Sequence record: NC_073084.1
Source: Escherichia phage vb_EcoS_bov22_1
DNA length: 44,612 bases
Reading direction: 5' to 3' (one strand)
In this document: positions 1,822 through 36,364 of the stretch, one piece after another
Numbering within the stretch: the stretch's first letter is position 1
How the letters are laid out: each line of letters starts with the position of its first letter
The notes under the pieces: generated by a model
What the model was told of the DNA's origin: nothing
The model's input: the letters and a program-made list of their open reading frames with translations, nothing else
Databases searched by the model: none
Program-made: the position numbers and the translations under genes

Positions 1822-3438
1822 ATGGCAGCGGGTACTTTATCCGTAACGAATAACAGCAAGGCGGTTGTAGGGGTAGGCACAACGTTTACCGCGTTTAAAG
1901 CTGGCGACTTCTTATCGCTGGTAGTGGGGCAAGTCCCTTACACTGTCGCTATTGCATCCGTAGAAAGCGACACGTCTCTTACGCTGGTGTTACCGTTCGA
2001 CGGACCAACGGCAACCGGCCTAGCCTGGGACGGCGTTAAGCGCGATACCATGTCATTGGCAACGATGGGCGTTACCGTACAGGCACAAAAAGCATTGCGC
2101 TTGATGATTGCAGATGAAAACAACTGGCGTGCAATCTTCGGCGACGCTGAAGAAATCACAGTGACGTTACCTAACGGGCAGGTTATGCAGGGCATGTCAT
2201 GGGGCTATCTGTCGCAGCTAATGAAGCAGATCGACCCTGTGGAGATGCGCAACCTGCAACAACAAGCAGCCGCATCGGAAGCAGCCGCGCAAGGATTTCG
2301 CAATGAGGCCGAAGGATTTCGCCATGAAGCCGAAGGATTCAAGGTGCAGAGCCTGGCAATCCTCAACAGCACGCAGGAGGTCCACGACGCCACCAGCACC
2401 ATCAAGGACCAGACGAACCAGATCAAGACGGATACGCAGGCCATCAAGGACCAGACGAACCAGATCAAGACGGATACTGGCGTTATTCGAGATCAGGCCA
2501 ATACAGCGAAGACGGACGCGCAAGCCGCCCGCGATGCCGCGCAGGGGTATCGGGATGAAGCCGAAGACTTCAAAAACGCGATCGACCCTACGCAATTCAT
2601 GAAGAAGTCGCAGAACCTGGCAGACGTCGCAGATAAATCGTCGGCACGCGCTAATCTTGGTCTGGGGTCTGTAGCTACGGAGAACACCGTACCCATCGGG
2701 AAAGGCGGCACTGCGGCGACAACGGCAGCGGCAGCACGCGCTAATCTTGGCGTTGGTGATGATAGTAACGTTAAACACGCAACATTACGTCTGAATGGTG
2801 GGGAGTCATTAGTATTCGATGACGTCGAAAGAAACGGCTTAGTTCTGTCTAACGTATCGTATGGGATTGACAGTTGGGTAGGCTTCACCATGCACAAATG
2901 GTACGCCGACTGGGTGCGCGCAGGCATTGTTCGCGCTGCTAACACTCAAATGTCGGACTACCGGATTCATACGTGGAAGAACGGTGTTTCCGAGGCGCTA
3001 TTCCGCTTCCTGCCGGACGGCAGGCTGATTCAGGGTAACAGCGGCAACCCTTCCGTAAATGAGTTTCAGAAAGCAGCGCTATCGGACCGCGACCTTAAAA
3101 AAGAAATCCAATACACTGACGGCGAGGAAAGCTACAACCGCGTTCGTCAATGGCTTCCGGCAATGTTCAAGTATAAGGAGTCTGACGTACAGCGATACGG
3201 CCTTATCGCACAGGACCTGGCAAGGATTGACCCAGAATATGTGCACTTGCTGCCGGGTTATGCCATTTATGAGGATATCAAGGGGGTGGACGAGGAAGGG
3301 AACGAAGTTGTAGTCGACCGAAAGGAGATCGGGTATACAGACGATGTGCTGTCGCTTGATAGTAACGTGTTGTTAATGGATCTGTGCGCCGCCTTCGTTC
3401 ACCTGTTGCGGAAAGTGGAGAAGCTAGAAGGTAAATAA
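1822..3438 (+). CDS. tail fibre protein with C-terminal intramolecular chaperone (peptidase S74-like) domain
   Basis: ATG 1822 with GAGGA RBS (alternative ATG 1795); internal coiled/collagen-like repeats (EAEGFR, IKDQTNQIKTDT); C-terminal SDRDLKKEI Ser-Lys motif typical of autoproteolytic chaperone domains. Confidence 0.75.
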   Translation: MAAGTLSVTNNSKAVVGVGTTFTAFKAGDFLSLVVGQVPYTVAIASVESDTSLTLVLPFDGPTATGLAWDGVKRDTMSLATMGVTVQAQKALRLMIADENNWRAIFGDAEEITVTLPNGQVMQGMSWGYLSQLMKQIDPVEMRNLQQQAAASEAAAQGFRNEAEGFRHEAEGFKVQSLAILNSTQEVHDATSTIKDQTNQIKTDTQAIKDQTNQIKTDTGVIRDQANTAKTDAQAARDAAQGYRDEAEDFKNAIDPTQFMKKSQNLADVADKSSARANLGLGSVATENTVPIGKGGTAATTAAAARANLGVGDDSNVKHATLRLNGGESLVFDDVERNGLVLSNVSYGIDSWVGFTMHKWYADWVRAGIVRAANTQMSDYRIHTWKNGVSEALFRFLPDGRLIQGNSGNPSVNEFQKAALSDRDLKKEIQYTDGEESYNRVRQWLPAMFKYKESDVQRYGLIAQDLARIDPEYVHLLPGYAIYEDIKGVDEEGNEVVVDRKEIGYTDDVLSLDSNVLLMDLCAAFVHLLRKVEKLEGK

Positions 3439-3443
3439 GGCGA

Positions 3444-3466
3444 AGGGGCCGTATGGCCCCTTTTTT
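3444..3466 (+). terminator. rho-independent terminator
   Basis: Hairpin aggggccgtatggcccct plus T6, right after the tail-fibre stop; near-identical to hairpins at 531 and 29161. Confidence 0.6.
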
Positions 3467-4040
3467 AGTTTGAGTTTTCCCAGTCCATTTTGCGCCGAAC
3501 CAGCGGGCTTTCGTAATATTCCTTCCCCTCCACTTCCACTAAGGGCCAGTCGTTAACAATCACGTACGGTTCCGCAATATCCTCAATCACGCCGTGCGCG
3601 CCATGTTGTCCGAACGATACGCCCACCAGAATAACACCGGCAACGCGACGGGTCAGATATTCGCGAGCGCAACGGGCCTCGACCAGTCCCCGACGTATGC
3701 CGCTGGTGGCCTTAACCTCGTAGGTCCAGACGGCATCGATCACATGCTCGCGGAAGTCGGGGCCGGATTTAACCTTGCGCTTGCCGACCATGATAATATC
3801 GCCGCGGTCAATGGTGTTGGCGCTAAACAGGCCGGTACGCATAAGCAAACCTTGCGGGATGCAACTACGCCCGCCCGCCTGCCCCTCAAGGTACATTCCT
3901 GCAAACATTTCGCCCAACACACCGACCAGTCGGCTTTGCTTGCACGCGTCAGACTTTAAGCGCCATTGATCAAACTCGATGCTTGCTATCATTGCCGCCA
4001 GGTGGAATTGTTTACCTGATATTTCATATTCGCCGTACAT
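3465..4040 (-). CDS. hypothetical protein (possible PD-(D/E)xK-type nuclease fold)
   Basis: 191-aa ORF; GAGGA RBS 8 nt upstream of ATG 4040; GDIIMVG ... EVK pattern loosely fits a D ... ExK nuclease core. Confidence 0.5.
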   Translation of the reverse strand: MYGEYEISGKQFHLAAMIASIEFDQWRLKSDACKQSRLVGVLGEMFAGMYLEGQAGGRSCIPQGLLMRTGLFSANTIDRGDIIMVGKRKVKSGPDFREHVIDAVWTYEVKATSGIRRGLVEARCAREYLTRRVAGVILVGVSFGQHGAHGVIEDIAEPYVIVNDWPLVEVEGKEYYESPLVRRKMDWENSN

Positions 4041-4604: not shown

Positions 4605-4666
4605 GATGTTTTCCTTTTTAGTGGAGGCGGTATTGCCCCCGACGTGATTAAGATACTGCAACCAAC

Positions 4667-5137
4667 CTATTGGTTGCAAGTAAATTTTGCAACGTTTATT
4701 GCGTAAATTTTCGGGACTAAATCGCTGCACGCCCGACGAATTGCCGCGATGTTCTTCGGGCAGTCTTCAATGATGACCAGTTCCGATACGTCCGCATAGC
4801 AGACCATTTTGAACACAGCGTACGCTTTAAACTCTGGCGGCGGGGTGTCGTCCAGCATGTGGCGCATGAACAACCGGCCTCTAGGGAATACTTCCAATTG
4901 CTCGGCTGTGGTGTCCCAGCATTCTCGCTGCCGGTTGGTCAGATACGCGATCTCGAAGCCTTGCTCTTTGTACATGGTCAGCAGCGGCAGCATATCCATG
5001 TTCAGATCTTCGCGTATATGCGCTTTGTGCCACTTCGCCCAAAAGGTGGATTTTGTTTTTATGCCCGGAACCAGGTCGGCACGCGCATCGCTTGAACCGT
5101 TAATAACGCCATCCAAATCGCAAATCAGTAATTTCAT
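4667..5137 (-). CDS. HAD-superfamily phosphatase (deoxyribonucleotidase or polynucleotide 3'-phosphatase-like)
   Basis: N-terminal LICDLDGV (DxDx[TV] HAD motif I); GAGGAG RBS 5 nt upstream of ATG 5137. Confidence 0.65.
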   Translation of the reverse strand: MKLLICDLDGVINGSSDARADLVPGIKTKSTFWAKWHKAHIREDLNMDMLPLLTMYKEQGFEIAYLTNRQRECWDTTAEQLEVFPRGRLFMRHMLDDTPPPEFKAYAVFKMVCYADVSELVIIEDCPKNIAAIRRACSDLVPKIYAINVAKFTCNQ

Positions 5138-12305: not shown

Positions 12306-13088
12306 TTAACGGCGGCGACGTTTACGTGGCGCTTCGTCTTCGTCGTCGTCCTCATCTTCGTCATCGCGTGGCTTACGACGTTTGCGAGGTTTTTCATCTT
12401 CCTCATCGTCGTCGTCATCGCGGCGCTTGGATTTCTTGGACTTGCGCGGCTTGTCATCTTCATCATCGTCATCACGACGTTTTGACTTTTTGGACTTGCG
12501 CGGTGCTTCGTCTTCGTCGTCGTTGTCCAGGTCTTCGTCGGAACATGAAGACCCGCCACCTCCGAAGGCTTCGCCGTCTTCACGGAATCGCAGACCCAGC
12601 AAGCCAGCCCCGAGACCCTTGCCGTTGGTATTGTTCCACGCCCAGATATCAAGGGACACGTTGCAATAACAACCGGAGTAGATCTCCTGGCCGTCAATCT
12701 CGTCGCCGTCGATGGTCAGACCTTGTTCGGTCTGCTTCTCGCCGAGTGACGTTTGAATGATAGGCTGTTTGAACGATTTGGCGTTGATATACAACATGCC
12801 TTCGAATTCTTCGGTCACTTCGTCACGCTCGTCACCGTCGCGGACTGCGCATTCCTTAGAATCCTGGGCGTAGTGGCGGTCCATCCACTTATCGGCATTC
12901 TTCTCGGATTTCAGCTTGTCGGTGAGCACTGCGCGCGCTGCCGCTTCCACTTTGTCCACCTGCGGATCTTCTTTATCCAGAAGAATCACGGCACGGTATG
13001 CCGGTTTTTGTCCATCCTGTTTAGGGGTATCACGTTCCCAGATTTTCAGGAAGCATACGCGCACATTTTTCAGGTTGACTTTAGCCAT
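12306..13088 (-). CDS. single-strand DNA-binding protein (phage type) with long acidic/basic repeat tail
   Basis: ATG 13088 (MAKVNLKN) with GAGGAA RBS; OB-fold-like body ending in DGEAFGGG; C-terminal repeats DDDDEDDKPRKSKKSKRR; usual partner of the RecB-like nuclease and polymerase A in phage replication modules. Confidence 0.6.
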   Translation of the reverse strand: MAKVNLKNVRVCFLKIWERDTPKQDGQKPAYRAVILLDKEDPQVDKVEAAARAVLTDKLKSEKNADKWMDRHYAQDSKECAVRDGDERDEVTEEFEGMLYINAKSFKQPIIQTSLGEKQTEQGLTIDGDEIDGQEIYSGCYCNVSLDIWAWNNTNGKGLGAGLLGLRFREDGEAFGGGGSSCSDEDLDNDDEDEAPRKSKKSKRRDDDDEDDKPRKSKKSKRRDDDDDEEDEKPRKRRKPRDDEDEDDDEDEAPRKRRRR

Positions 13089-15332: not shown

Positions 15333-15851
15333 TTAATCTTCCAGTTCGAAATAGGTTTCGACGATTTCTTTTAACTCTGTGTGGAAGTCTTCGACGTCGT
15401 CATCTTCCAGCTTGGCGATTGATTTGATCTCGAACGATTCCAGCAGGTCGTCGAATTCGTCGTTCGCGTCGTCGTCATCACCCCCGGCAATAATAGCGGC
15501 ATACTGTTTGATCTCGTCGCGCATCTCTGCCAGCGGATCGGCATCTTTCTTACCTTTGCCTTTCGCCGGGGCTTTTTTACCCTTCGCAGGTTTTTCGTCT
15601 TCGGCTTCTTCATCGTCGTCATCTTCTACGACTTCTTTTTTGGACTTACCTTTCGCCGGGGCTTTTTTAGATTTAGCCGGTTTTTCGTCTTCGGCTTCAT
15701 CGTCGCCATCTTCGACAACTTCTTTTTTCGCCTTAGACGGCTTCTTGTCTTCCTGTTTACCAACGGCAGCGCCAACGGTTTCATAATGCTTTGCAATGGT
15801 TTCCAGTGCTACTACGCCGCGAGTGATCAGGTTTACGATTTGCTCAAACAT
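15333..15851 (-). CDS. highly acidic protein with Lys-rich tandem repeats; first gene of the leftward early operon (candidate host-takeover or DNA-mimic protein)
   Basis: ATG 15851 with GGAGATATACC RBS (upstream part of the track ORF has no RBS); two ~30-aa repeats KKEVVEDxDDEAEDEKPAKxKKAPAKGKxKK; acidic C-terminus. Confidence 0.65.
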   Translation of the reverse strand: MFEQIVNLITRGVVALETIAKHYETVGAAVGKQEDKKPSKAKKEVVEDGDDEAEDEKPAKSKKAPAKGKSKKEVVEDDDDEEAEDEKPAKGKKAPAKGKGKKDADPLAEMRDEIKQYAAIIAGGDDDDANDEFDDLLESFEIKSIAKLEDDDVEDFHTELKEIVETYFELED

Positions 15852-16254: not shown

Positions 16255-16584
16255 ATGAATGTAAACGACGCAATCGAAATGTTAACGAAGACTGTTTGCA
16301 GTGAGACAAGCCGGTCATGGGCATACACCGATGCCGTAGGGGCTGTGTTATTTGAAATCGAACGACTGCGCAGTATCGAAAAAGAATTGCGCGCCAGGCT
16401 GGAACTACTCAACGGTACAGCAGCAAGCAAGCTGCAAAAACACAATGAAGAAATGGAAGAATACAAAAAGCAGGTTATCCGTTTGCGCGCCGAGGGCAAA
16501 TCCTGGGCGATGATTGCTGAGTTGACCGGAATTAATCAGAGCACAGTTCGCTCCTGGGTACGCAATAATAAAACTTCTAAGTAA
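16255..16584 (+). CDS. helix-turn-helix DNA-binding protein (putative transcriptional regulator)
   Basis: 109 aa; C-terminal SWAMIAELTGINQSTVRSWV HTH; N-terminal coiled coil; first gene of the rightward block. Confidence 0.65.
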   Translation: MNVNDAIEMLTKTVCSETSRSWAYTDAVGAVLFEIERLRSIEKELRARLELLNGTAASKLQKHNEEMEEYKKQVIRLRAEGKSWAMIAELTGINQSTVRSWVRNNKTSK

Positions 16585-16594
16585 GGCCGCGGCA

Positions 16595-18859
16595 ATGAGC
16601 TTAATTAAATTCGCTGTAACAAAACCCGCTAAAAAAGGCGAAAAAGCCAGGGCGGAAAACTTCCAGATGACGACCGATGAGTTTTTCGAATTTATCAAAG
16701 ATGCGAAAGAAATATCCTCGGTGCATATCAACAAGACGGAAGATAAAGCCGAGTATGCGCGCCGCAAGCGTAAGGCCGATGGCATCGTGGCGTATACCAG
16801 TGACGGATTGCGTCGTAAGACCAGTGCGGTGGACCGCTCGATCCTGTTCTTTGATATTGACCGCACCGACACCCGCACCCTGCGCCGCTGCCGTAAGGCG
16901 TTCATCGACGCGGGTCTGGAACACGTATTTCACACCACCACCGGCGACCGCCACCCGCTGAAGGGCGGCACGCGTTGCGCCCGTTTCCTGGTGCTCACTG
17001 ACAAGCCTGTACCGGCTGAAGACCTGGGCCGCGTACAATATGCACTATTACACCAACTGGGTCTGTCAGATGTGGACTTCGACGATTGCACGAAAGACAC
17101 AAACCGCCTGATGTACCTGCCACACCAGCAGTCTGTTATTAAGTGCCACTATGGCAAGCGCGCCAATGTGCGTCGTCTACTCCGTCGGGCGGACAAGCTG
17201 GGGGTGGAAAAAGAGGAAGTACGCCGCGAGCTTACCCAGGGCGACGACGCAGTGGCAGACGGCATTCTGGACTGGTGCTTCCAGGCCGGATTCGAGGAGT
17301 TATCTTCTGGTCGTGGTTATGAAGTGCCGTGTCCTAACGAACATCTGCACAGCGGCGAAGGGTCGACGGCTATCATGGTCAAGGATGGTGAGATCCGTTT
17401 CAAGTGTATGCACACTGGCAACGAGTGTTGCTCGGAACTGAACAGACACCAGCACCTGGCGCTACGTCTTATCGGGATCCCGGACCACCTGAACGTCGAA
17501 CCGCACAACATGTCACGTAAGCAAATCGCCGCCATCCTCCCAGGACTGGACGACGAGGAAGTGGAATCATGCTATGCGCATATCGTTGATGCGGTCGGAG
17601 ACGGCGACGAGTACGGCGTATGTACCGACGCTGACCTGGATAACGAACCGGTCGCACTGTTCAGTAAGCACGACCCTATCATCGAGGGGTTGATTAACTT
17701 TAAATCGACCTGGTATATGGCTGGCGAGTCTAACATCGGTAAATCGTTCTACGTGCTGGGCCAAATGGGCGCTGTTGCCGCGGGTATTCCGTTCGGCGGT
17801 GCGAAGGTCGTCCAGTCTCATTGCTTCTATTTCGACGCGGAAGGTGGCGAAGCCTCCAACCAGCGTAAGGAAGCATTGCAGATCAAATATGAGCACGACC
17901 TGGACAAGCTGCACATTATCGATCTGCAATCACGCGGCTGGGATATCACCAGCAAGTCCGGCTTGCGTGAAGTTATCAGCTTCATCAACCGCACCGCTAA
18001 CGGCGAACCGGTTGGCCTGGTGGCGTTCGACTCACTCAACCAGACGGTTGCGTTGCGGTCCGCCGATGCCAAACCGTTCGACGAGAACAACGCCAGCGAT
18101 ATGGGCGAAGTGGTCAAAGCGCTGAAGGCCATCGCGGAAAATACAGGCGGCAGCGCGGGCGTCATCCACCACCCGGCGAAGGGTGCAAACGGCAGCAGAT
18201 CTCCCCGTGGGTCCGGTGCGCTGCATGGTGCTGTCGATTCTGCGTTCTTCCTGGAGCAACCAGACGACAACCAGCCCGGACAACTGAACCTGTATCACGA
18301 GAAGGCACGTAACGGCATCAAGCAAGCGCCGCGCGGCTTCGTCCTGCTCAAGTGCAAGGTGAAGGTGGATCTCCGCAAGTCCGAGGCGTTCGAGGCACAC
18401 CAGTCCACCAGCACAGGGCCGGACTTCGGCGATGTAGTTGCCGGTTGGGACGTCAAGCCAATTGCATCCACGCCACGCGACGAGACTCTTTACCTCGTAC
18501 CGGTCGCCCTGGCACCGTTCGCCATCGAACAGGCGAAGGCCGCGGGCAAGGCCGCAGTTAAGGAGGAGAACGCCGCAGGACCGCGCAACGAAAAAGAGAA
18601 AGTGCTTTATGCGGCACTGGAAAAACTGATGGAAGATAACCCGGACCATACCGGATTCAGTAAATCGGCAATTGTACGCCAGGCGGGATTGGCAAAAGGC
18701 GGCACATCGACGAAGGCAATCGACGATATGGTCGAGCGCGGCGTGCTCGGTTTTTATACAGATCCGCACACCGGGGCCATCTATGGGTCGTCAAATATCG
18801 TCATCAAAACGAATATACCCATCACGCTTTCGGCGACCGATGACGACCTGAAAGATTAA
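16595..18859 (+). CDS. primase-helicase (N-terminal primase-like domain with Cys/His cluster, C-terminal RecA-like ATPase)
   Basis: 754 aa; Walker A GESNIGKS and RepA/DnaB-like ATPase region; CPNEHLH ... CMHTGNECC zinc-binding-like cluster. Confidence 0.75.
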   Translation: MSLIKFAVTKPAKKGEKARAENFQMTTDEFFEFIKDAKEISSVHINKTEDKAEYARRKRKADGIVAYTSDGLRRKTSAVDRSILFFDIDRTDTRTLRRCRKAFIDAGLEHVFHTTTGDRHPLKGGTRCARFLVLTDKPVPAEDLGRVQYALLHQLGLSDVDFDDCTKDTNRLMYLPHQQSVIKCHYGKRANVRRLLRRADKLGVEKEEVRRELTQGDDAVADGILDWCFQAGFEELSSGRGYEVPCPNEHLHSGEGSTAIMVKDGEIRFKCMHTGNECCSELNRHQHLALRLIGIPDHLNVEPHNMSRKQIAAILPGLDDEEVESCYAHIVDAVGDGDEYGVCTDADLDNEPVALFSKHDPIIEGLINFKSTWYMAGESNIGKSFYVLGQMGAVAAGIPFGGAKVVQSHCFYFDAEGGEASNQRKEALQIKYEHDLDKLHIIDLQSRGWDITSKSGLREVISFINRTANGEPVGLVAFDSLNQTVALRSADAKPFDENNASDMGEVVKALKAIAENTGGSAGVIHHPAKGANGSRSPRGSGALHGAVDSAFFLEQPDDNQPGQLNLYHEKARNGIKQAPRGFVLLKCKVKVDLRKSEAFEAHQSTSTGPDFGDVVAGWDVKPIASTPRDETLYLVPVALAPFAIEQAKAAGKAAVKEENAAGPRNEKEKVLYAALEKLMEDNPDHTGFSKSAIVRQAGLAKGGTSTKAIDDMVERGVLGFYTDPHTGAIYGSSNIVIKTNIPITLSATDDDLKD

Positions 18860-18904
18860 AATTTGCGCGCATTGGTTGCCGTTTTAAGTGTTTTTATCTG
18901 GTCG

Positions 18905-18933
18905 TATTGGTTGCCGTGTAGTGTAGATATAAT
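18905..18933 (+). promoter_or_regulatory. candidate promoter reading into the iteron/hairpin element
   Basis: Perfect -10 TATAAT at 18928-18933 with TTGGTT/ATTGGT 15-17 nt upstream. Confidence 0.35.
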
Positions 18934-18954
18934 GAATAGTTATGCATTGAAACT

Positions 18955-19126
18955 GCATAAACTAAGCGGGACAAAAAGCGGGACAAACAAGGGGCGGGAC
19001 AAAGCGGGACAGCACCCCCGTCCCGCCCCGGATGACGCGGCTTCCAGAGGAGCGGGACAGCGGGACAGCACCCCAGTCTTTCAGACTAGACGGGGGTCAA
19101 CGGCCCCCCTCGTCTGAGACTGAATA
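18955..19126 (+). repeat. structured repeat element, copy A: GCGGGACA iterons plus GC-rich hairpins
   Basis: Six direct GCGGGACA-like copies and one inverted; 10-bp stem GGGGCGGGAC/GTCCCGCCCC; second hairpin AGACGGGGG ... CCCCCCTCGTCT; nearly identical to 36128-36301. Confidence 0.7.
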
Positions 19127-19282
19127 AAATCCGGGGATTGCAAAACACACGGCAGCATGATGCGAAGTGCGGTCGCGGATGAACTAGGCAACCAATGCTA
19201 GTAGCATTATGCTGAGTGAAAAATGCGGTTTGCAGTTGCAGCAGATAGCGATCAACTTTTTCATGCGCGTTATTAATATTGG

Positions 19283-19311
19283 TTGCATCCGCCCAGGCAC
19301 CCTGCTATATT
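19283..19311 (+). promoter_or_regulatory. sigma70-like promoter with paired TTGGTTGCA motifs
   Basis: TTGCAT-17 nt-TATATT, then GGTTGCACACCAACAGGAGG and ATG 19339; the 22-mer TATATTGGTTGCACACCAACAG recurs on the minus strand at 30323-30344. Confidence 0.45.
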
Positions 19312-19338
19312 GGTTGCACACCAACAGGAGGGCGGAAC

Positions 19339-32918: not shown

Positions 32919-33089
32919 ATGAATCCTGCATTACTGGCGGCTATTATCGCCGCAAATACTAAGCACCAACCAGAACCAGAGCCGGAACCAGAACCAGAGC
33001 CGGAACCAGAGCCGGAACCAGAACCAGAGCCGGAACCAGAACCAGAGCCGGAGCCACCGGTACAGGAGGATGCTAATGGCGGGCTTTAA
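32919..33089 (+). CDS. small protein with (Pro-Glu)n dipeptide repeat
   Basis: ATG 32919 with GGGGGTGA RBS; MNPALLAAIIAANTKHQ followed by about 17 PE repeats; overlaps the next gene start. Confidence 0.45.
   Translation: MNPALLAAIIAANTKHQPEPEPEPEPEPEPEPEPEPEPEPEPEPEPPVQEDANGGL
32968..33056 (+). repeat. tandem hexanucleotide-type repeat (ccagaa/ccagag/ccggaa units) encoding the PE tract
   Basis: Direct reading: gaaccagagccggaaccagaaccagagccg repeated. Confidence 0.7.
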
Positions 33090-35665: not shown

Positions 35666-35979
35666 TTGAGGCGGCGCGACGCTTTTATGGCCCGCCGCCA
35701 CCCTCCGAAGATTTAGCCGCAAGTTTATGGGGCGCGGCCCCCGAAGATGTTTGTCCGCCTGTTGCGCTATGGCCTGACAACGCGAAGATAGTCGCGGTCT
35801 TCACAGATTGCGCCACGCAATGGCGCACCGGATTTGGTGGCGCATACGGCATCGACTACGGCGTGCTGGAGTGGTTATTTAAGATGCACGGTATCGAAAA
35901 CGAACAGCGCGCGTTTAAAGATATCAAGCTAATGGAACGAATCGCGCTTGATGAGATGGCGCAGCAGAACCCCGCATAA
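35303..35979 (+). CDS. tail assembly chaperone frameshift product (gpG-T-like) via -1 programmed frameshift
   Basis: Slippery A AAA AAC at 35656-35662; the -1 frame is open from there to TAA 35977-35979 with no plausible start of its own. Confidence 0.5.
35656..35662 (+). promoter_or_regulatory. -1 ribosomal frameshift slippery heptamer A AAA AAC
   Basis: X XXY YYZ pattern in the zero frame, two codons before the chaperone stop. Confidence 0.5.
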
Positions 35980-35982
35980 TGA

Positions 35983-36120
35983 AGCGGGACAAAACGGGAT
36001 GTCCCGTTTTGTCCCACCCCACAAATGTGCATATCTAATCACTTCCATTGCATAATCTAAAAGCGGGACAATCGGGACGTCCCGTTTTGTCCCACCCCAC
36101 AAATGTGCATACCTATTCGG
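35983..36120 (+). repeat. two tandem ~79-bp units, each with a 30-bp GGGAC-based palindrome next to a promoter-like TTGTCC-17 nt-TATCTA/TACCTA
   Basis: Perfect inverted repeat gggacaaaacggga-tg-tcccgttttgtccc at 35986-36015; degenerate copy 36065-36093; each followed by accccacaaatgtgcata. Confidence 0.6.
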
Positions 36121-36127
36121 ATTTCGT

Positions 36128-36301
36128 GCATAAACTAAGCGGGACAAAAAGCGGGACAAACAAGGTGCGGGACAAAGCGGGACAGCACCCCCGTCCCAGC
36201 CAGTGCTGCCGCGGTTTTTAGCCGATCGGGACAGGCGGGACAAACCCCAGTCTTTCAGACTAGACGGGGGTCAATGGCCCCCCTCGTCTGAGACTGCATA
36301 A
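36128..36301 (+). repeat. structured repeat element, copy B (GCGGGACA iterons plus hairpins)
   Basis: About 70 nt then about 60 nt near-identical to 18955-19126, with a divergent central segment; in the second hairpin the single C/T difference falls in the loop. Confidence 0.7.
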
Positions 36302-36364
36302 GGTTTGTTTTAAATTCGCTGATACAATATCAATCGGCAACTGCATAAAAAAGGGGACTGCATA

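Follow-up and report, generated by a model that had tools for sequence, protein, structure and literature searches.

In the genome of Escherichia phage vb_EcoS_bov22_1, a Dhillonvirus whose 44,612-nucleotide sequence (NC_073084.1) is the window analysed in this study, two distant intergenic regions carry the same short repeats and the same imperfect hairpin, one directly downstream of a primase-helicase gene and the other between tail genes, which raises the question of what such a paired element would do. Dhillonviruses, including HK578, SO-1, SECphi4, SECphi18 and several phages of the BASEL collection, are widely used in work on anti-phage defence, and to our knowledge their replication origin has never been mapped. 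A preliminary description of the window had likened the two loci to the ori and crr sites of satellite phage P4, with an RNA element or binding sites for a phage regulator as other readings. In the GenBank record of Sodalis phage SO-1, both blocks are already annotated as repeats (repeat_region) named 'region A' and 'region B', and we found nothing on a function of these repeats in the published literature.

The two regions have a core of about 175 nucleotides in common and are both non-coding. Region B and the two genes preceding it comprise the following features:

16255-16584, plus strand: gene for a small protein (109 residues) with a C-terminal helix-turn-helix (Pfam HTH_23 / Sigma70_r4_2, residues 65-105)
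16595-18859, plus strand: gene for the primase-helicase (754 residues; AEP/PrimPol, RepA-type helicase and C-terminal winged helix), the proposed initiator
18860-19338, plus strand: region B, the entire intergenic space that follows the stop codon of the primase-helicase gene (18859), proposed as origin proper
18871-18879 and 18906-18914, plus strand: two direct ATTGGTTGC sites, a separate regulatory motif identified by motif count
18920-18965, no strand: AT-rich leader (70-75% A+T) and possible unwinding region, with TATAAT (18928-18933) and TGCATAA (18954-18960)
18966-19011, plus strand: iterons B1-B4, copies of GCGGGACA at 18966, 18978, 18994 and 19004
19020-19026, minus strand: inverted iteron GTCCCGC, which pairs with B3 in a 10-bp stem
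19030-19051, no strand: divergent centre, which exists in two versions, B-type and A-type
19052-19067, plus strand: iterons B5-B6, GCGGGACAGCGGGACA, with GCGGGACA at 19052 and 19060
19074-19122, no strand: conserved imperfect hairpin consisting of CAGTCTTTCAGACTAGACGGGGG, a loop and CCCCCCTCGTCTGAGACTG (fold -13.4 kcal/mol, z = -3.3)
19188-19196, minus strand: inverted ATTGGTTGC site, from the same motif count
19278-19317, plus strand: promoter-like segment for the downstream genes, with TTGCAT (19283-19288), a 17-nt spacer and TGCTATATT (19303-19311)

The corresponding features of region A are:

35979-36364, plus strand: region A, intergenic, preceded by the tail-chaperone genes and followed by the tape-measure gene, proposed as second (crr-like) iteron array
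35984-36138, plus strand: two tandem 78-nt units (direct-repeat family D6, 83% identity), absent from the preliminary description
36139-36184, plus strand: iterons A1-A4, copies of GCGGGACA at 36139, 36151, 36167 and 36177
36226-36242, plus strand: iterons A5-A6, TCGGGACA at 36226 and GCGGGACA at 36235
36248-36296, no strand: second copy of the conserved hairpin (fold -13.3 kcal/mol, z = -4.1)
36320-36328, plus strand: TGATACAAT, an extended -10-like box of putative function, 37 nt 5' of the tape-measure start codon and kept in region A of phage Ioannina
36365-39007, plus strand: tape-measure protein gene, a downstream landmark (Pfam TMP_2 / Tape_meas_lam_C on homologues; annotated in PaulFeyerabend and SO-1)

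The near-identity of the two blocks around a divergent centre, noted from the outset, is borne out by alignment, with 99% identity over the 71 nucleotides of 18954-19024 and 36127-36197, and 79% in an ungapped comparison of 19015-19127 with 36189-36301 that includes the divergent centre. The repeat GCGGGACA has 15 exact matches in the window compared to 1.99 expected, a number that was reached in none of 100 shuffles, and 13 of the 15 are located inside the two regions. Seven of them belong to region A (35984, 36063, 36139, 36151, 36167, 36177 and 36235), which contains several degenerate copies besides. In each of its 78-nt units, GCGGGACA and a perfect palindrome, made up of four half sites that resemble the repeat, are followed by a CCCCACAAATGTGCATA tail. 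The palindromes span 35986-36015 and 36065-36093 (inverted repeat I2, 14 nt, 100% complementary), and the palindrome unit folds with -15.4 kcal/mol (z = -5.5). In region B, the six direct iterons and the one inverted copy are present as initially described, whereas their proposed helical-turn spacing applies only loosely and only to the first four copies, the distances being 12, 16, 10, 48 and 8 nt. Likewise, the 10-bp stem between GGGGCGGGAC (18991-19000) and GTCCCGCCCC (19020-19029) is exact but missing from the window's own region A, and it is paired in only 74.5% of cells in an alignment of 29 copies. Depending on the phage, 0 to 10 nt separate the inverted iteron from B4, and many copies of region A have a degenerate inverted iteron.

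Region B was found in 157 of 157 matching phage records, with a coverage of at least 80% in 142, and region A in all Dhillonvirus records, with at least two matching places in each. Throughout the 29 aligned copies, which originate from diverse Dhillon-like phages, the CGGGACA core is invariant, as is the 5' arm of the hairpin at 19074-19122, whose 3' arm is nearly so and whose loop is variable, with stems that are 97-99% paired. The octamer cores and the 23-nt hairpin arm remain unchanged even in clades whose proteins are 59-68% identical, which argues for selection rather than drift. The GACGGGGG...CCCCTCGTC core of the hairpin recurs in region A of phage eiAU, and the GAATAGTTATGCA...ATAA segment of the leader is kept in Cornellvirus and the L128 clade. 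What is conserved is the octamer, in both orientations and at variable spacing, which by its pattern is the signature expected of sites that a protein would bind in duplex DNA. Mosaic variants common to regions A and B indicate that gene conversion between them occurs. An open reading frame at 18863-19117 (plus strand) and the 'hypothetical proteins' that some records place over the arrays were rejected as genes, since 1-nt indels among close relatives put most of the reading frame out of register and since the annotated strand differs from record to record.

A candidate for a protein that recognizes these sites is encoded next to region B. Pfam and PDB sequence searches with the N- and C-terminal parts of the primase-helicase returned nothing, and structure prediction was thus required for both ends. 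The N-terminus was found to contain an AEP/PrimPol domain with a Cys/His cluster (AEP fold compared with 6zp9, E = 1.4e-5), the core matches Pfam AAA_25 and, weakly, RepA (1g8y), and approximately residues 665-740 at the C-terminus were modelled as a winged helix, with the winged helix of Orc1/Cdc6 as top matches. A protein search with the C-terminal 165 residues alone returned a single fragment. Judged from this domain make-up and the comparisons below, the C-terminal winged helix is most likely the reader of both arrays. The small helix-turn-helix gene is the first of a two-gene operon with the primase-helicase, and its product is a candidate binder of ATTGGTTGC rather than of the iterons. 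The ATTGGTTGC motif has 14 exact sites in the window compared to 0.36 expected, two of which (19278 and 19309) overlap the promoter-like segment downstream of the array; this segment was read by eye, scores below a strict consensus scan and is kept in Ioannina and L112.

An indication of a relationship between the enzyme and the repeats comes from more distant phages. In relatives with a primase-helicase of 44-48% identity, a different short repeat occupies the same place 3' of the stop codon. In Cornellvirus FSL SP-031 this repeat is GGGGGAGA, in a nearly equivalent arrangement in which direct copies and a single inverted one are followed by a spacer, a further copy and a GC hairpin; the repeat following the primase-helicase gene is TTGCGA(GT) in L129 and L260, TTCCGCACA in Serratia phage Smarc3, AGGGAT in L257, L259 and L261, and TCGCCCCG in eiAU. 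Conservation within the enzyme is lowest in the winged helix, with 24-33% identity compared to 63-68% in the helicase core. Across 11 lineages, the first residues of the recognition helix of this domain go with the repeat class, with three classes each common to two or three lineages:

Recognition helix GGT(S/N)T(K/T): repeat CGGGACA, 3 lineages
Recognition helix GGxRRPA: repeat AGGGAT, 3 lineages
Recognition helix SxxYxK: repeat TTGCGA, 2 lineages
Remaining classes: three singletons

In four further lineages (the L254 clade, two AGGGAT lineages and eiAU), the lineage's own repeat is also found 5' of the tape-measure gene, and both loci thus follow one specificity determinant. For the L034 contig, the question of whether it has region A was settled via homologues of the tape-measure protein; a 15-nt scan for a clade-specific hairpin variant gave mostly chance matches. 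Cornellvirus has one array only, and a second array is therefore no general requirement. In Jerseyvirus and Kagunavirus no clear iterons were detected in the large upstream non-coding regions; these phages have a different gene order with no intergenic gap 3' of the primase-helicase gene. Since the small helix-turn-helix gene upstream of the primase-helicase and the second flanking motif also vary between lineages, covariation alone is no proof of which protein binds which repeat. In L112 the small helix-turn-helix protein is conserved, and this lineage does not separate that protein from the iterons.

A different kind of evidence is provided by about 13 unrelated viral contigs, which hold arrays of (G)CGGGACA together with a palindromic, GC-rich hairpin that has GGGACA/TGTCCC on its flanks. 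The arrays start 0-100 nt 3' of the stop codon of the contig's own Prim-Pol/AAA_25 gene, on the same strand. That these loci have the octamer in common is due in part to its use as the search motif. The winged helices encoded next to it have no homology to the Dhillon domain that hhalign would detect, with no significant match among the three families of DNA-binding domains, which does not account for the common octamer and counts against the origin reading. Homologues of the small helix-turn-helix protein were found at Dhillon-like loci only and at none of these unrelated loci. In other viral contigs, GCGGGACA is located inside a rep gene in an arrangement resembling lambda O, and a profile of these rep proteins has no match in the window.

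From these comparisons, we consider it fairly probable that regions A and B together form a two-part iteron origin, an ori with a crr-like second array, which would be read by the primase-helicase. The comparison with P4 made in the preliminary description is favoured by the comparative evidence, as primase, helicase and a C-terminal winged helix are united in the gene product, as the repeat changes with the recognition helix across 11 lineages, as both loci change together and as unrelated phages place the same repeat directly 3' of their own primase-helicase genes, but the enzyme is no homologue of P4 alpha and the assignment of function is one that we infer. In the proposed mechanism, the CGGGACA octamers would act as iterons bound by the C-terminal winged helix of the PrimPol-helicase. 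The freshly made enzyme would bind to the array adjoining its own gene and oligomerise on direct and inverted repeats, whereupon its RepA-type helicase might open flanking DNA that is A+T-rich or prone to form hairpins. The hairpin at 19074-19122, either extruded or exposed as single strand, could then serve for helicase loading or for priming by the AEP domain, before phage DNA polymerase I would take over. Region A might assist in a crr-like manner, brought to region B through a DNA loop formed by the same protein, or it might be a second site of initiation. In line with an origin, escape mutants of the Dhillonvirus HK578 from P2 OLD map to the helicase-primase and its promoter, and the authors of that study propose hairpins of origin single-stranded DNA as trigger of OLD (bioRxiv 10.64898/2026.07.10.737580). 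Several observations count against an origin. The A+T-rich stretch 5' of the iterons is modest, with 70-75% over about 18880-18950 and no long A+T tract, the DnaA (TTWTNCACA) and IHF (WATCAANNNNTTR) consensus sequences are absent from both regions, and the GC skew mirrors the direction of transcription only, with no inflection at A or B. A place between tail genes is also odd for a component of an origin. In L261 and in the L013, L010 and L093 loci, the arrays themselves contain IHF-consensus sites.

The proposed arrangement combines features of several known replication systems. The crr site of P4 contains repeat units in tandem and must be present in cis. As in P4, a single polypeptide contains a primase, a helicase and a C-terminal winged helix (PMC4234260, PMC2777425), and a second, distant cluster holds the same repeats of octamer size. 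P4 alpha and ORF904 of pRN1 have the same three-function layout as the enzyme encoded in the window, with the winged helix binding origin repeats in the former and proposed to do so in the latter (PMC2777425, PMC4234260). However, P4 alpha combines a DnaG/Toprim primase with an SF3 helicase, whereas the window's enzyme contains an AEP fold and a RepA/AAA_25 helicase, and it is therefore an analogue and not a member of the same family. The two arrays are 17 kb apart compared to a few kb in P4 and, unlike P4, they belong to a virulent siphophage that encodes a DNA polymerase of its own, with a different iteron sequence and a conserved hairpin at each array. In the case of pRN1 ORF904 and Bordetella phage BPP-1/BIP-1, the origin is located directly 3' of a gene for a prim-pol, helicase and winged-helix protein, which is preceded by a gene for a small DNA-binding protein as found here, and a stem-loop is an essential cis element (PMC4234260). 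In contrast to the octamer iterons, the imperfect hairpin of about 49 nt and the second locus of the window, these systems have an SF3 helicase, a stem-loop of about 100 nt and no iterons. The oriV of RSF1010 (IncQ) also combines iterons with hairpins, in this case ssiA and ssiB, which are used in single-stranded form by a dedicated primase, and its helicase belongs to the RepA family (PMC4234260), to which the AAA_25 helicase of the window has a weak match. In RSF1010, iteron binding, unwinding and priming are distributed over the three proteins RepC, RepA and RepB', whereas in the window these functions appear fused and two arrays are present; no RepC- or RepB'-type protein was found among the neighbouring genes in Pfam and PHROG. 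In lambda, short repeats are bound by a winged-helix-type domain of the initiator, and repeat and domain change together between related phages as they do here, although the lambda iterons are part of the coding sequence of O, which recruits the host DnaB via P, in contrast to the intergenic array and the initiator with its own helicase and primase in the window. Finally, in the origins of SaPI/PICI and PLE elements, an iteron array also adjoins the gene of an initiator or helicase; these are satellites with a single array and other protein families, in contrast to the autonomous virulent phage investigated here.

The alternative that fares best among those considered, but which we still regard as unlikely, takes the repeats for arrays of operators or enhancers on which another DNA-binding protein of the phage would act, such as the small helix-turn-helix protein (16255-16584) or a late regulator, with replication starting elsewhere. 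Region B would then switch on small, lysis and head genes and region A the tape-measure and tail-tip genes, both as rightward late units. In line with such a role, both arrays are located just 5' of promoter-like boxes for rightward genes (19283-19311 and 36320-36328) and are co-oriented with them, the 385-nt non-coding gap within the tail operon resembles the boundary of a transcription unit, and the small helix-turn-helix gene family also changes between lineages. However, unrelated phages with other downstream genes and no homologue of the helix-turn-helix protein carry the same repeat directly 3' of the primase-helicase stop codon, the repeat class follows the recognition helix of that enzyme, and it is ATTGGTTGC that overlaps the promoter-like boxes, which makes this motif the better candidate for the operator of a transcription regulator.

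A further proposal retains a function in replication. The arrays might be helicase-loading sites that head two late gene blocks and couple replication to late transcription, as a replication-dependent enhancer resembling that of the T4 late genes, and their extruded hairpins might be the single-stranded DNA structures sensed in Dhillonviruses by abortive-infection systems such as P2 OLD or Lamassu, a possibility that we consider doubtful.

It is very improbable that the element acts as RNA, either as a put-like signal for processive antitermination or as a small RNA, with the TATAAT box as its promoter and with modification of RNA polymerase or sequestration of a factor ahead of long operons as its effect. 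Two copies on the same strand do precede long rightward gene blocks, the hairpins are stable with conserved stems and variable loops, and a long-range complement of 9 nt (ACCCCCGTC/GACGGGGGT), which is present in both copies, could allow alternative folds. Yet the G-U pair taken as a hint at RNA did not hold up, as the sole G-T/U pair closes the loop of the second hairpin and is dispensable, and the complementary strand of 19074-19122 folds equally well (-14.1 kcal/mol). The TATAAT box is present at 18928-18933 as described, but it has no -35 partner in a consensus scan and is lost in phage Ioannina, although transcription might reach the element by read-through from the primase-helicase gene. 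No Rfam family matched at gathering score, with a lax search returning one chance match to a miRNA (E = 2.4), and the covariation analysis suggested in the preliminary description, performed on 29 copies, was uninformative for the second hairpin, whose stems hardly vary and have no compensatory changes, and negative for the first, which is poorly conserved. Relatives moreover swap the repeat sequence wholesale while its position is kept. A scan for sigma-70 consensus promoters found none in region B and a single 9-of-12 match in region A (35951-35980), which overlaps the end of the upstream coding sequence.

Packaging signals of the pac type for the small terminase, or inert terminator or insulator hairpins kept alike by gene conversion, are highly unlikely: the phage packages by a headful mechanism (PMC9022532), pac sites can hold repeated motifs, one database record annotates a terminator on the first hairpin and mosaic A/B variants are seen, but the small-terminase gene is about 5 kb away, the arrays go with the primase-helicase gene even in unrelated phages, a plus-strand terminator scan of both regions found no site and no hairpin followed by a T-run, and the invariance of octamer cores and hairpin arm described above points to selection. 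Since the group packages by the headful mechanism (PMC9022532), a reading of the element as a cos end was rejected.

Collectively, what the analysis describes is most likely a device of a kind already known, a paired iteron origin, in a phage group whose origin has not been mapped. It offers a concrete candidate for this origin, consisting of two arrays, an octamer, a hairpin and a protein domain predicted to read them, and a specificity code that relates the class of the recognition helix to the class of the repeat. It also suggests what the 'origin hairpins' invoked in the 2026 preprint on the escape of HK578 from OLD (bioRxiv 10.64898/2026.07.10.737580) might physically be. If the arrays were indeed to couple replication to late transcription, a bipartite origin with one half in the tail operon, found in several genera, would be a regulatory device and an immune target beyond its role as start site. 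In the reading that we favour, that of a two-part origin recognized by the primase-helicase, the initiator logic of P4 and pRN1, which unites primase, helicase and winged helix, would be extended to an enzyme of the AEP/RepA type, which is widespread among enterobacterial siphophages and many uncultured viruses.

At 44.6 kb, the window comprises an essentially full-length Dhillonvirus genome, from an E. coli siphophage belonging to the HK578/SO-1 group, in which DNA is packaged by a headful mechanism (PMC9022532). Over the element, identity to the bovine isolates vb_EcoS_bov16_1, bov15_1, bov11C2 and bov25_1D is 99.8-100%. From about 16 kb leftward lie the replication genes, and a rightward block continues beyond the primase-helicase gene with small genes followed by lysis, terminase, head and tail genes. 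The relevant features are:

16255-16584, + strand: small HTH gene (109 aa), opening the rightward block
16595-18859, + strand: primase-helicase gene, second in the rightward block
18860-19338: region B, intergenic, after the primase-helicase stop codon
18991-19000 / 19020-19029: hairpin 1, in region B
19020-19026: inverted iteron copy
19074-19122 and 36248-36296: hairpin 2, two copies
35979-36364: region A, before the tape-measure gene
19014-19022 / 19089-19097 and 36187-36195 / 36263-36271: complementary pair ACCCCCGTC / GACGGGGGT
1797, 4669, 6568, 6585, 9527, 16055, 18871, 18906, 19188, 19278, 19309, 20039, 22543, 30334: exact copies of ATTGGTTGC

The near-identity of the two loci noted in the preliminary description amounts to 99% over 71 nt (18954-19024 versus 36127-36197), and an ungapped match of 79% relates 19015-19127 to 36189-36301. 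Both regions contain the octamer iteron GCGGGACA with its core CGGGACA, whose 15 copies in the window, compared to two expected, were reached by no shuffle, and 13 of which reside within regions A and B, all on the + strand. The inverted copy and the 10-bp stem of region B are present as described, but the proposed helical-turn spacing fits only the first four copies, and loosely, the measured distances being 12/16/10/48/8 nt. Region A additionally contains two tandem units of 78 nt, in each of which repeat-like half sites form a perfect palindrome. The heptamer TGCATAA recurs around both arrays (18954, 36049, 36127, 36295, 36342, 36359), and GAATAGTTATGCA-N-(G/C)ATAA directly precedes the first iteron, a feature kept even in Cornellvirus despite its different iteron. 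In both copies, ACCCCCGTC after iteron 4 is the perfect complement of GACGGGGGT in the 5' arm of hairpin 2, and this pairing could compete with the local hairpin; the complementarity is not kept in the L128 clade of relatives.

The element is found at at least two places in all 157 matching phage records. Both blocks were annotated as 'region A' and 'region B' in the 2009 GenBank record of SO-1, which describes them as direct, inverted and palindromic repeats resembling each other, and our literature search found no published analysis of them. The repeat pair had therefore been noticed before.

The window has further repeats. Two copies of AAGGCGAAGGGGCC(A/G)TATGGCCCCTTTTTTA (524-554 and 3437-3467, 94% identical), each a GC hairpin followed by a T-run, are textbook intrinsic-terminator-like sites bracketing a block with the 1795-3438 gene, whose homologue in PaulFeyerabend is the lateral tail-fibre gene. 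Within this gene, a perfect 37-nt repeat with a 42-nt period (2399-2477) represents a recent in-frame duplication of 14 codons. Tandem AACCAGAACCAGAGCCGG repeats offset by 12 or 18 nt form six overlapping 41-nt copies at 32950-33074, and GTC/GTCGTC-rich families with 54-nt and 90-nt tandem units (12322-12540 and 15539-15718, - strand) account for acidic/basic low-complexity stretches in the products of two leftward early genes.

In the primase-helicase, Pfam recognizes solely a RepA-like AAA_25 core (residues 357-531). For an AlphaFold model of residues 1-350 (pLDDT 84.6), the top structural match is the AEP domain of cyanophage S-2L PrimPol (6zp9, E = 1.4e-5), ahead of LigD polymerase domains and Prim-PolC, and homologues retain a Cys/His cluster as well as an invariant DxD pair. 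The enzyme thus shares the primase, helicase and winged-helix organisation described for P4 alpha and pRN1 ORF904 (PMC2777425, PMC4234260); its primase and helicase families are different ones.

Primase-helicase relatives of 44-48% identity carry a different short-repeat array, again directly after the stop codon:

Repeats of primase-helicase relatives
Cornellvirus FSL SP-031: GGGGGAGA
Serratia phage Smarc3: TTCCGCACA
Edwardsiella phage eiAU: TCGCCCCG
three lineages: AGGGAT
two metagenomic lineages: TTGCGA(GT)

The layout in FSL SP-031 is nearly that of the window, with pairs of direct copies, one inverted copy, a spacer of about 25 nt, a further copy and a GC hairpin. No part of the protein diverges more than the winged helix (24-33% identity versus 63-68% in the helicase core), and among 11 lineages the repeat class sorts exactly with the first residues of the winged helix's recognition helix, where GGT(S/N)T(K/T) accompanies CGGGACA (three lineages), GGxRRPA AGGGAT (three), SxxYxK TTGCGA (two) and three singleton forms three different repeats (one lineage each). 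This is the pattern expected for specificity pairs of initiator and iteron.

In four groups, the lineage's own repeat is also located upstream of the tape-measure gene. One is a clade whose proteins are 59-68% identical to those of the window and whose hairpin is the same; two are AGGGAT lineages; the fourth is eiAU, where a 33-nt segment is common to both loci and a related GACGGGGG...CCCCTCGTC hairpin occurs. The two-part arrangement thus predates the genus; Cornellvirus has a single array, beside the primase-helicase gene. Within single Dhillonvirus genomes, derived changes are common to regions A and B, and mosaic variants move between the two, a sign of gene conversion. In L254, from a clade with 59% tape-measure identity, an insertion of two leftward genes (1353-2101; 126 and 123 aa, no Pfam match) separates the tail chaperone genes from region A, so that the boundary of region A either tolerates insertions or is a divergent promoter zone. 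The eiAU record (KF772233) opens inside its own region A, with GCAACCAA repeats at both ends, and several Dhillonvirus records (PTXU06, Zar3M, WFI, SP1 and PEC9) end about 100 nt past region B, probably reflecting an arbitrary or copied orientation.

An IMG/VR scan for two nearby copies of GCGGGACA, and thus conditioned on this octamer, revealed about 13 contigs of diverse phages besides Dhillonviruses, in which the end of a Prim-Pol/AAA_25 gene is followed, 0-100 nt past its stop codon, by direct (G)CGGGACA repeats on the same strand and then by a GC-rich palindromic hairpin between GGGACA and TGTCCC (L017, L092, L057, L028, L083, L027, L093, L049/L056, L060, L013, L009, L010, L021). IHF-consensus sites (WATCAANNNNTTR) lie between repeat groups in L013, L010 and L093. 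These contigs have no homologue of the small HTH protein, so what consistently accompanies the array is the primase-helicase rather than the HTH gene or downstream genes. In about a dozen further contigs, 4-7 copies, with neighbours mostly 11 nt apart, reside inside a lambda-O-like rep gene (L008, L012, L026, L031, L035, L059, L063, L068, L103, L121, L124), which looks like an origin-within-initiator-gene arrangement using the same octamer. The product of this gene, which has no Pfam match, carries a winged-helix-like domain ('...RFLKRLEKRDM...') at its N terminus, and no homology is detectable among the three DNA-binding domain families.

We thus favour, with moderate confidence, a model in which region B would be an origin beside its initiator gene, and region A a second array for the same winged helix, the predicted binder, acting either as a helper resembling crr, the second repeat cluster of the P4 origin, or as a second start site. 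The conserved hairpin would then be a site of helicase loading or priming, comparable to the ssi sites of RSF1010 and the stem-loop of pRN1 (PMC4234260). Of the proposed resemblance to the ori/crr pair of P4, the comparative evidence favours the arrangement, with its similar second array; the enzyme itself, an AEP/RepA-type/winged-helix protein, is not homologous to that of P4. As judged from sequence, the system would not represent a new principle but an iteron origin adjoining its initiator combined with a P4-like second array and a non-homologous enzyme.

That the arrays instead bind a transcription regulator appears unlikely in light of their constant association with the primase-helicase. 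A putative regulatory signal lies close by: ATTGGTTGC has 14 exact copies in the genome versus 0.36 expected, five of them within region B. The sites examined (16055, the five in region B, a palindromic pair near 4650-4690) are all non-coding, and two of them overlap the promoter-like segment TTGCAT-17-TGCTATATT, which lies immediately upstream of the following genes. Related but lineage-specific versions flank the arrays of eiAU (GTTGGTTGC), the AGGGAT arrays of L257 (GCTGCCAAC) and L259 (GCAGCCAAC) and the TTGCGA array of L260 (GCGGCCAAC). The motif is probably the operator of a phage regulator, perhaps the small HTH protein, for which it, rather than the iteron, is the obvious candidate site. 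Its presence beside the iterons makes region B a composite of replication-type and transcription-type signals.

A function as RNA is very improbable. Hairpin 2 is present, with a folding energy of -13.4 kcal/mol, but the opposite strand folds equally well (-14.1), and the supposedly required G-U pair is a dispensable G-T that merely closes the loop. The TATAAT box assigned as promoter lacks a -35 element and is lost in phage Ioannina, and an Rfam search of the element gave no match. In an alignment of 29 copies, only 74.5% of cells are paired in hairpin 1, compared to 97-99% in hairpin 2, which is almost invariant and shows no compensatory change; these hints of RNA were thus rejected. Loops vary, while every copy, distant clades included, has the same 23-nt 5' arm AGTCTTTCAGACTAGACGGGGG, a pattern that argues for a hairpin-prone duplex or single strand being recognised by its sequence rather than for an RNA fold. 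We give similarly little credence to a role in packaging or termination; regions A and B contain no T-run terminator on the + strand. GC skew was uninformative on the origin, and neither region contains DnaA or IHF boxes.

Collectively, these results amount to a well-defined origin model that can readily be tested, for a phage group in frequent use, together with a clear protein-DNA specificity code. According to a July 2026 preprint, the Dhillonvirus HK578 is restricted by P2 OLD, and escape mutations map to its helicase-primase (gp46) and the promoter of the gp45-46 operon; the authors propose single-stranded DNA hairpins at phage origins as trigger, with the HK578 origin left unmapped (bioRxiv 10.64898/2026.07.10.737580). 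In this respect, the hairpin-rich arrays are obvious candidates for the OLD-activating origin hairpins of HK578.
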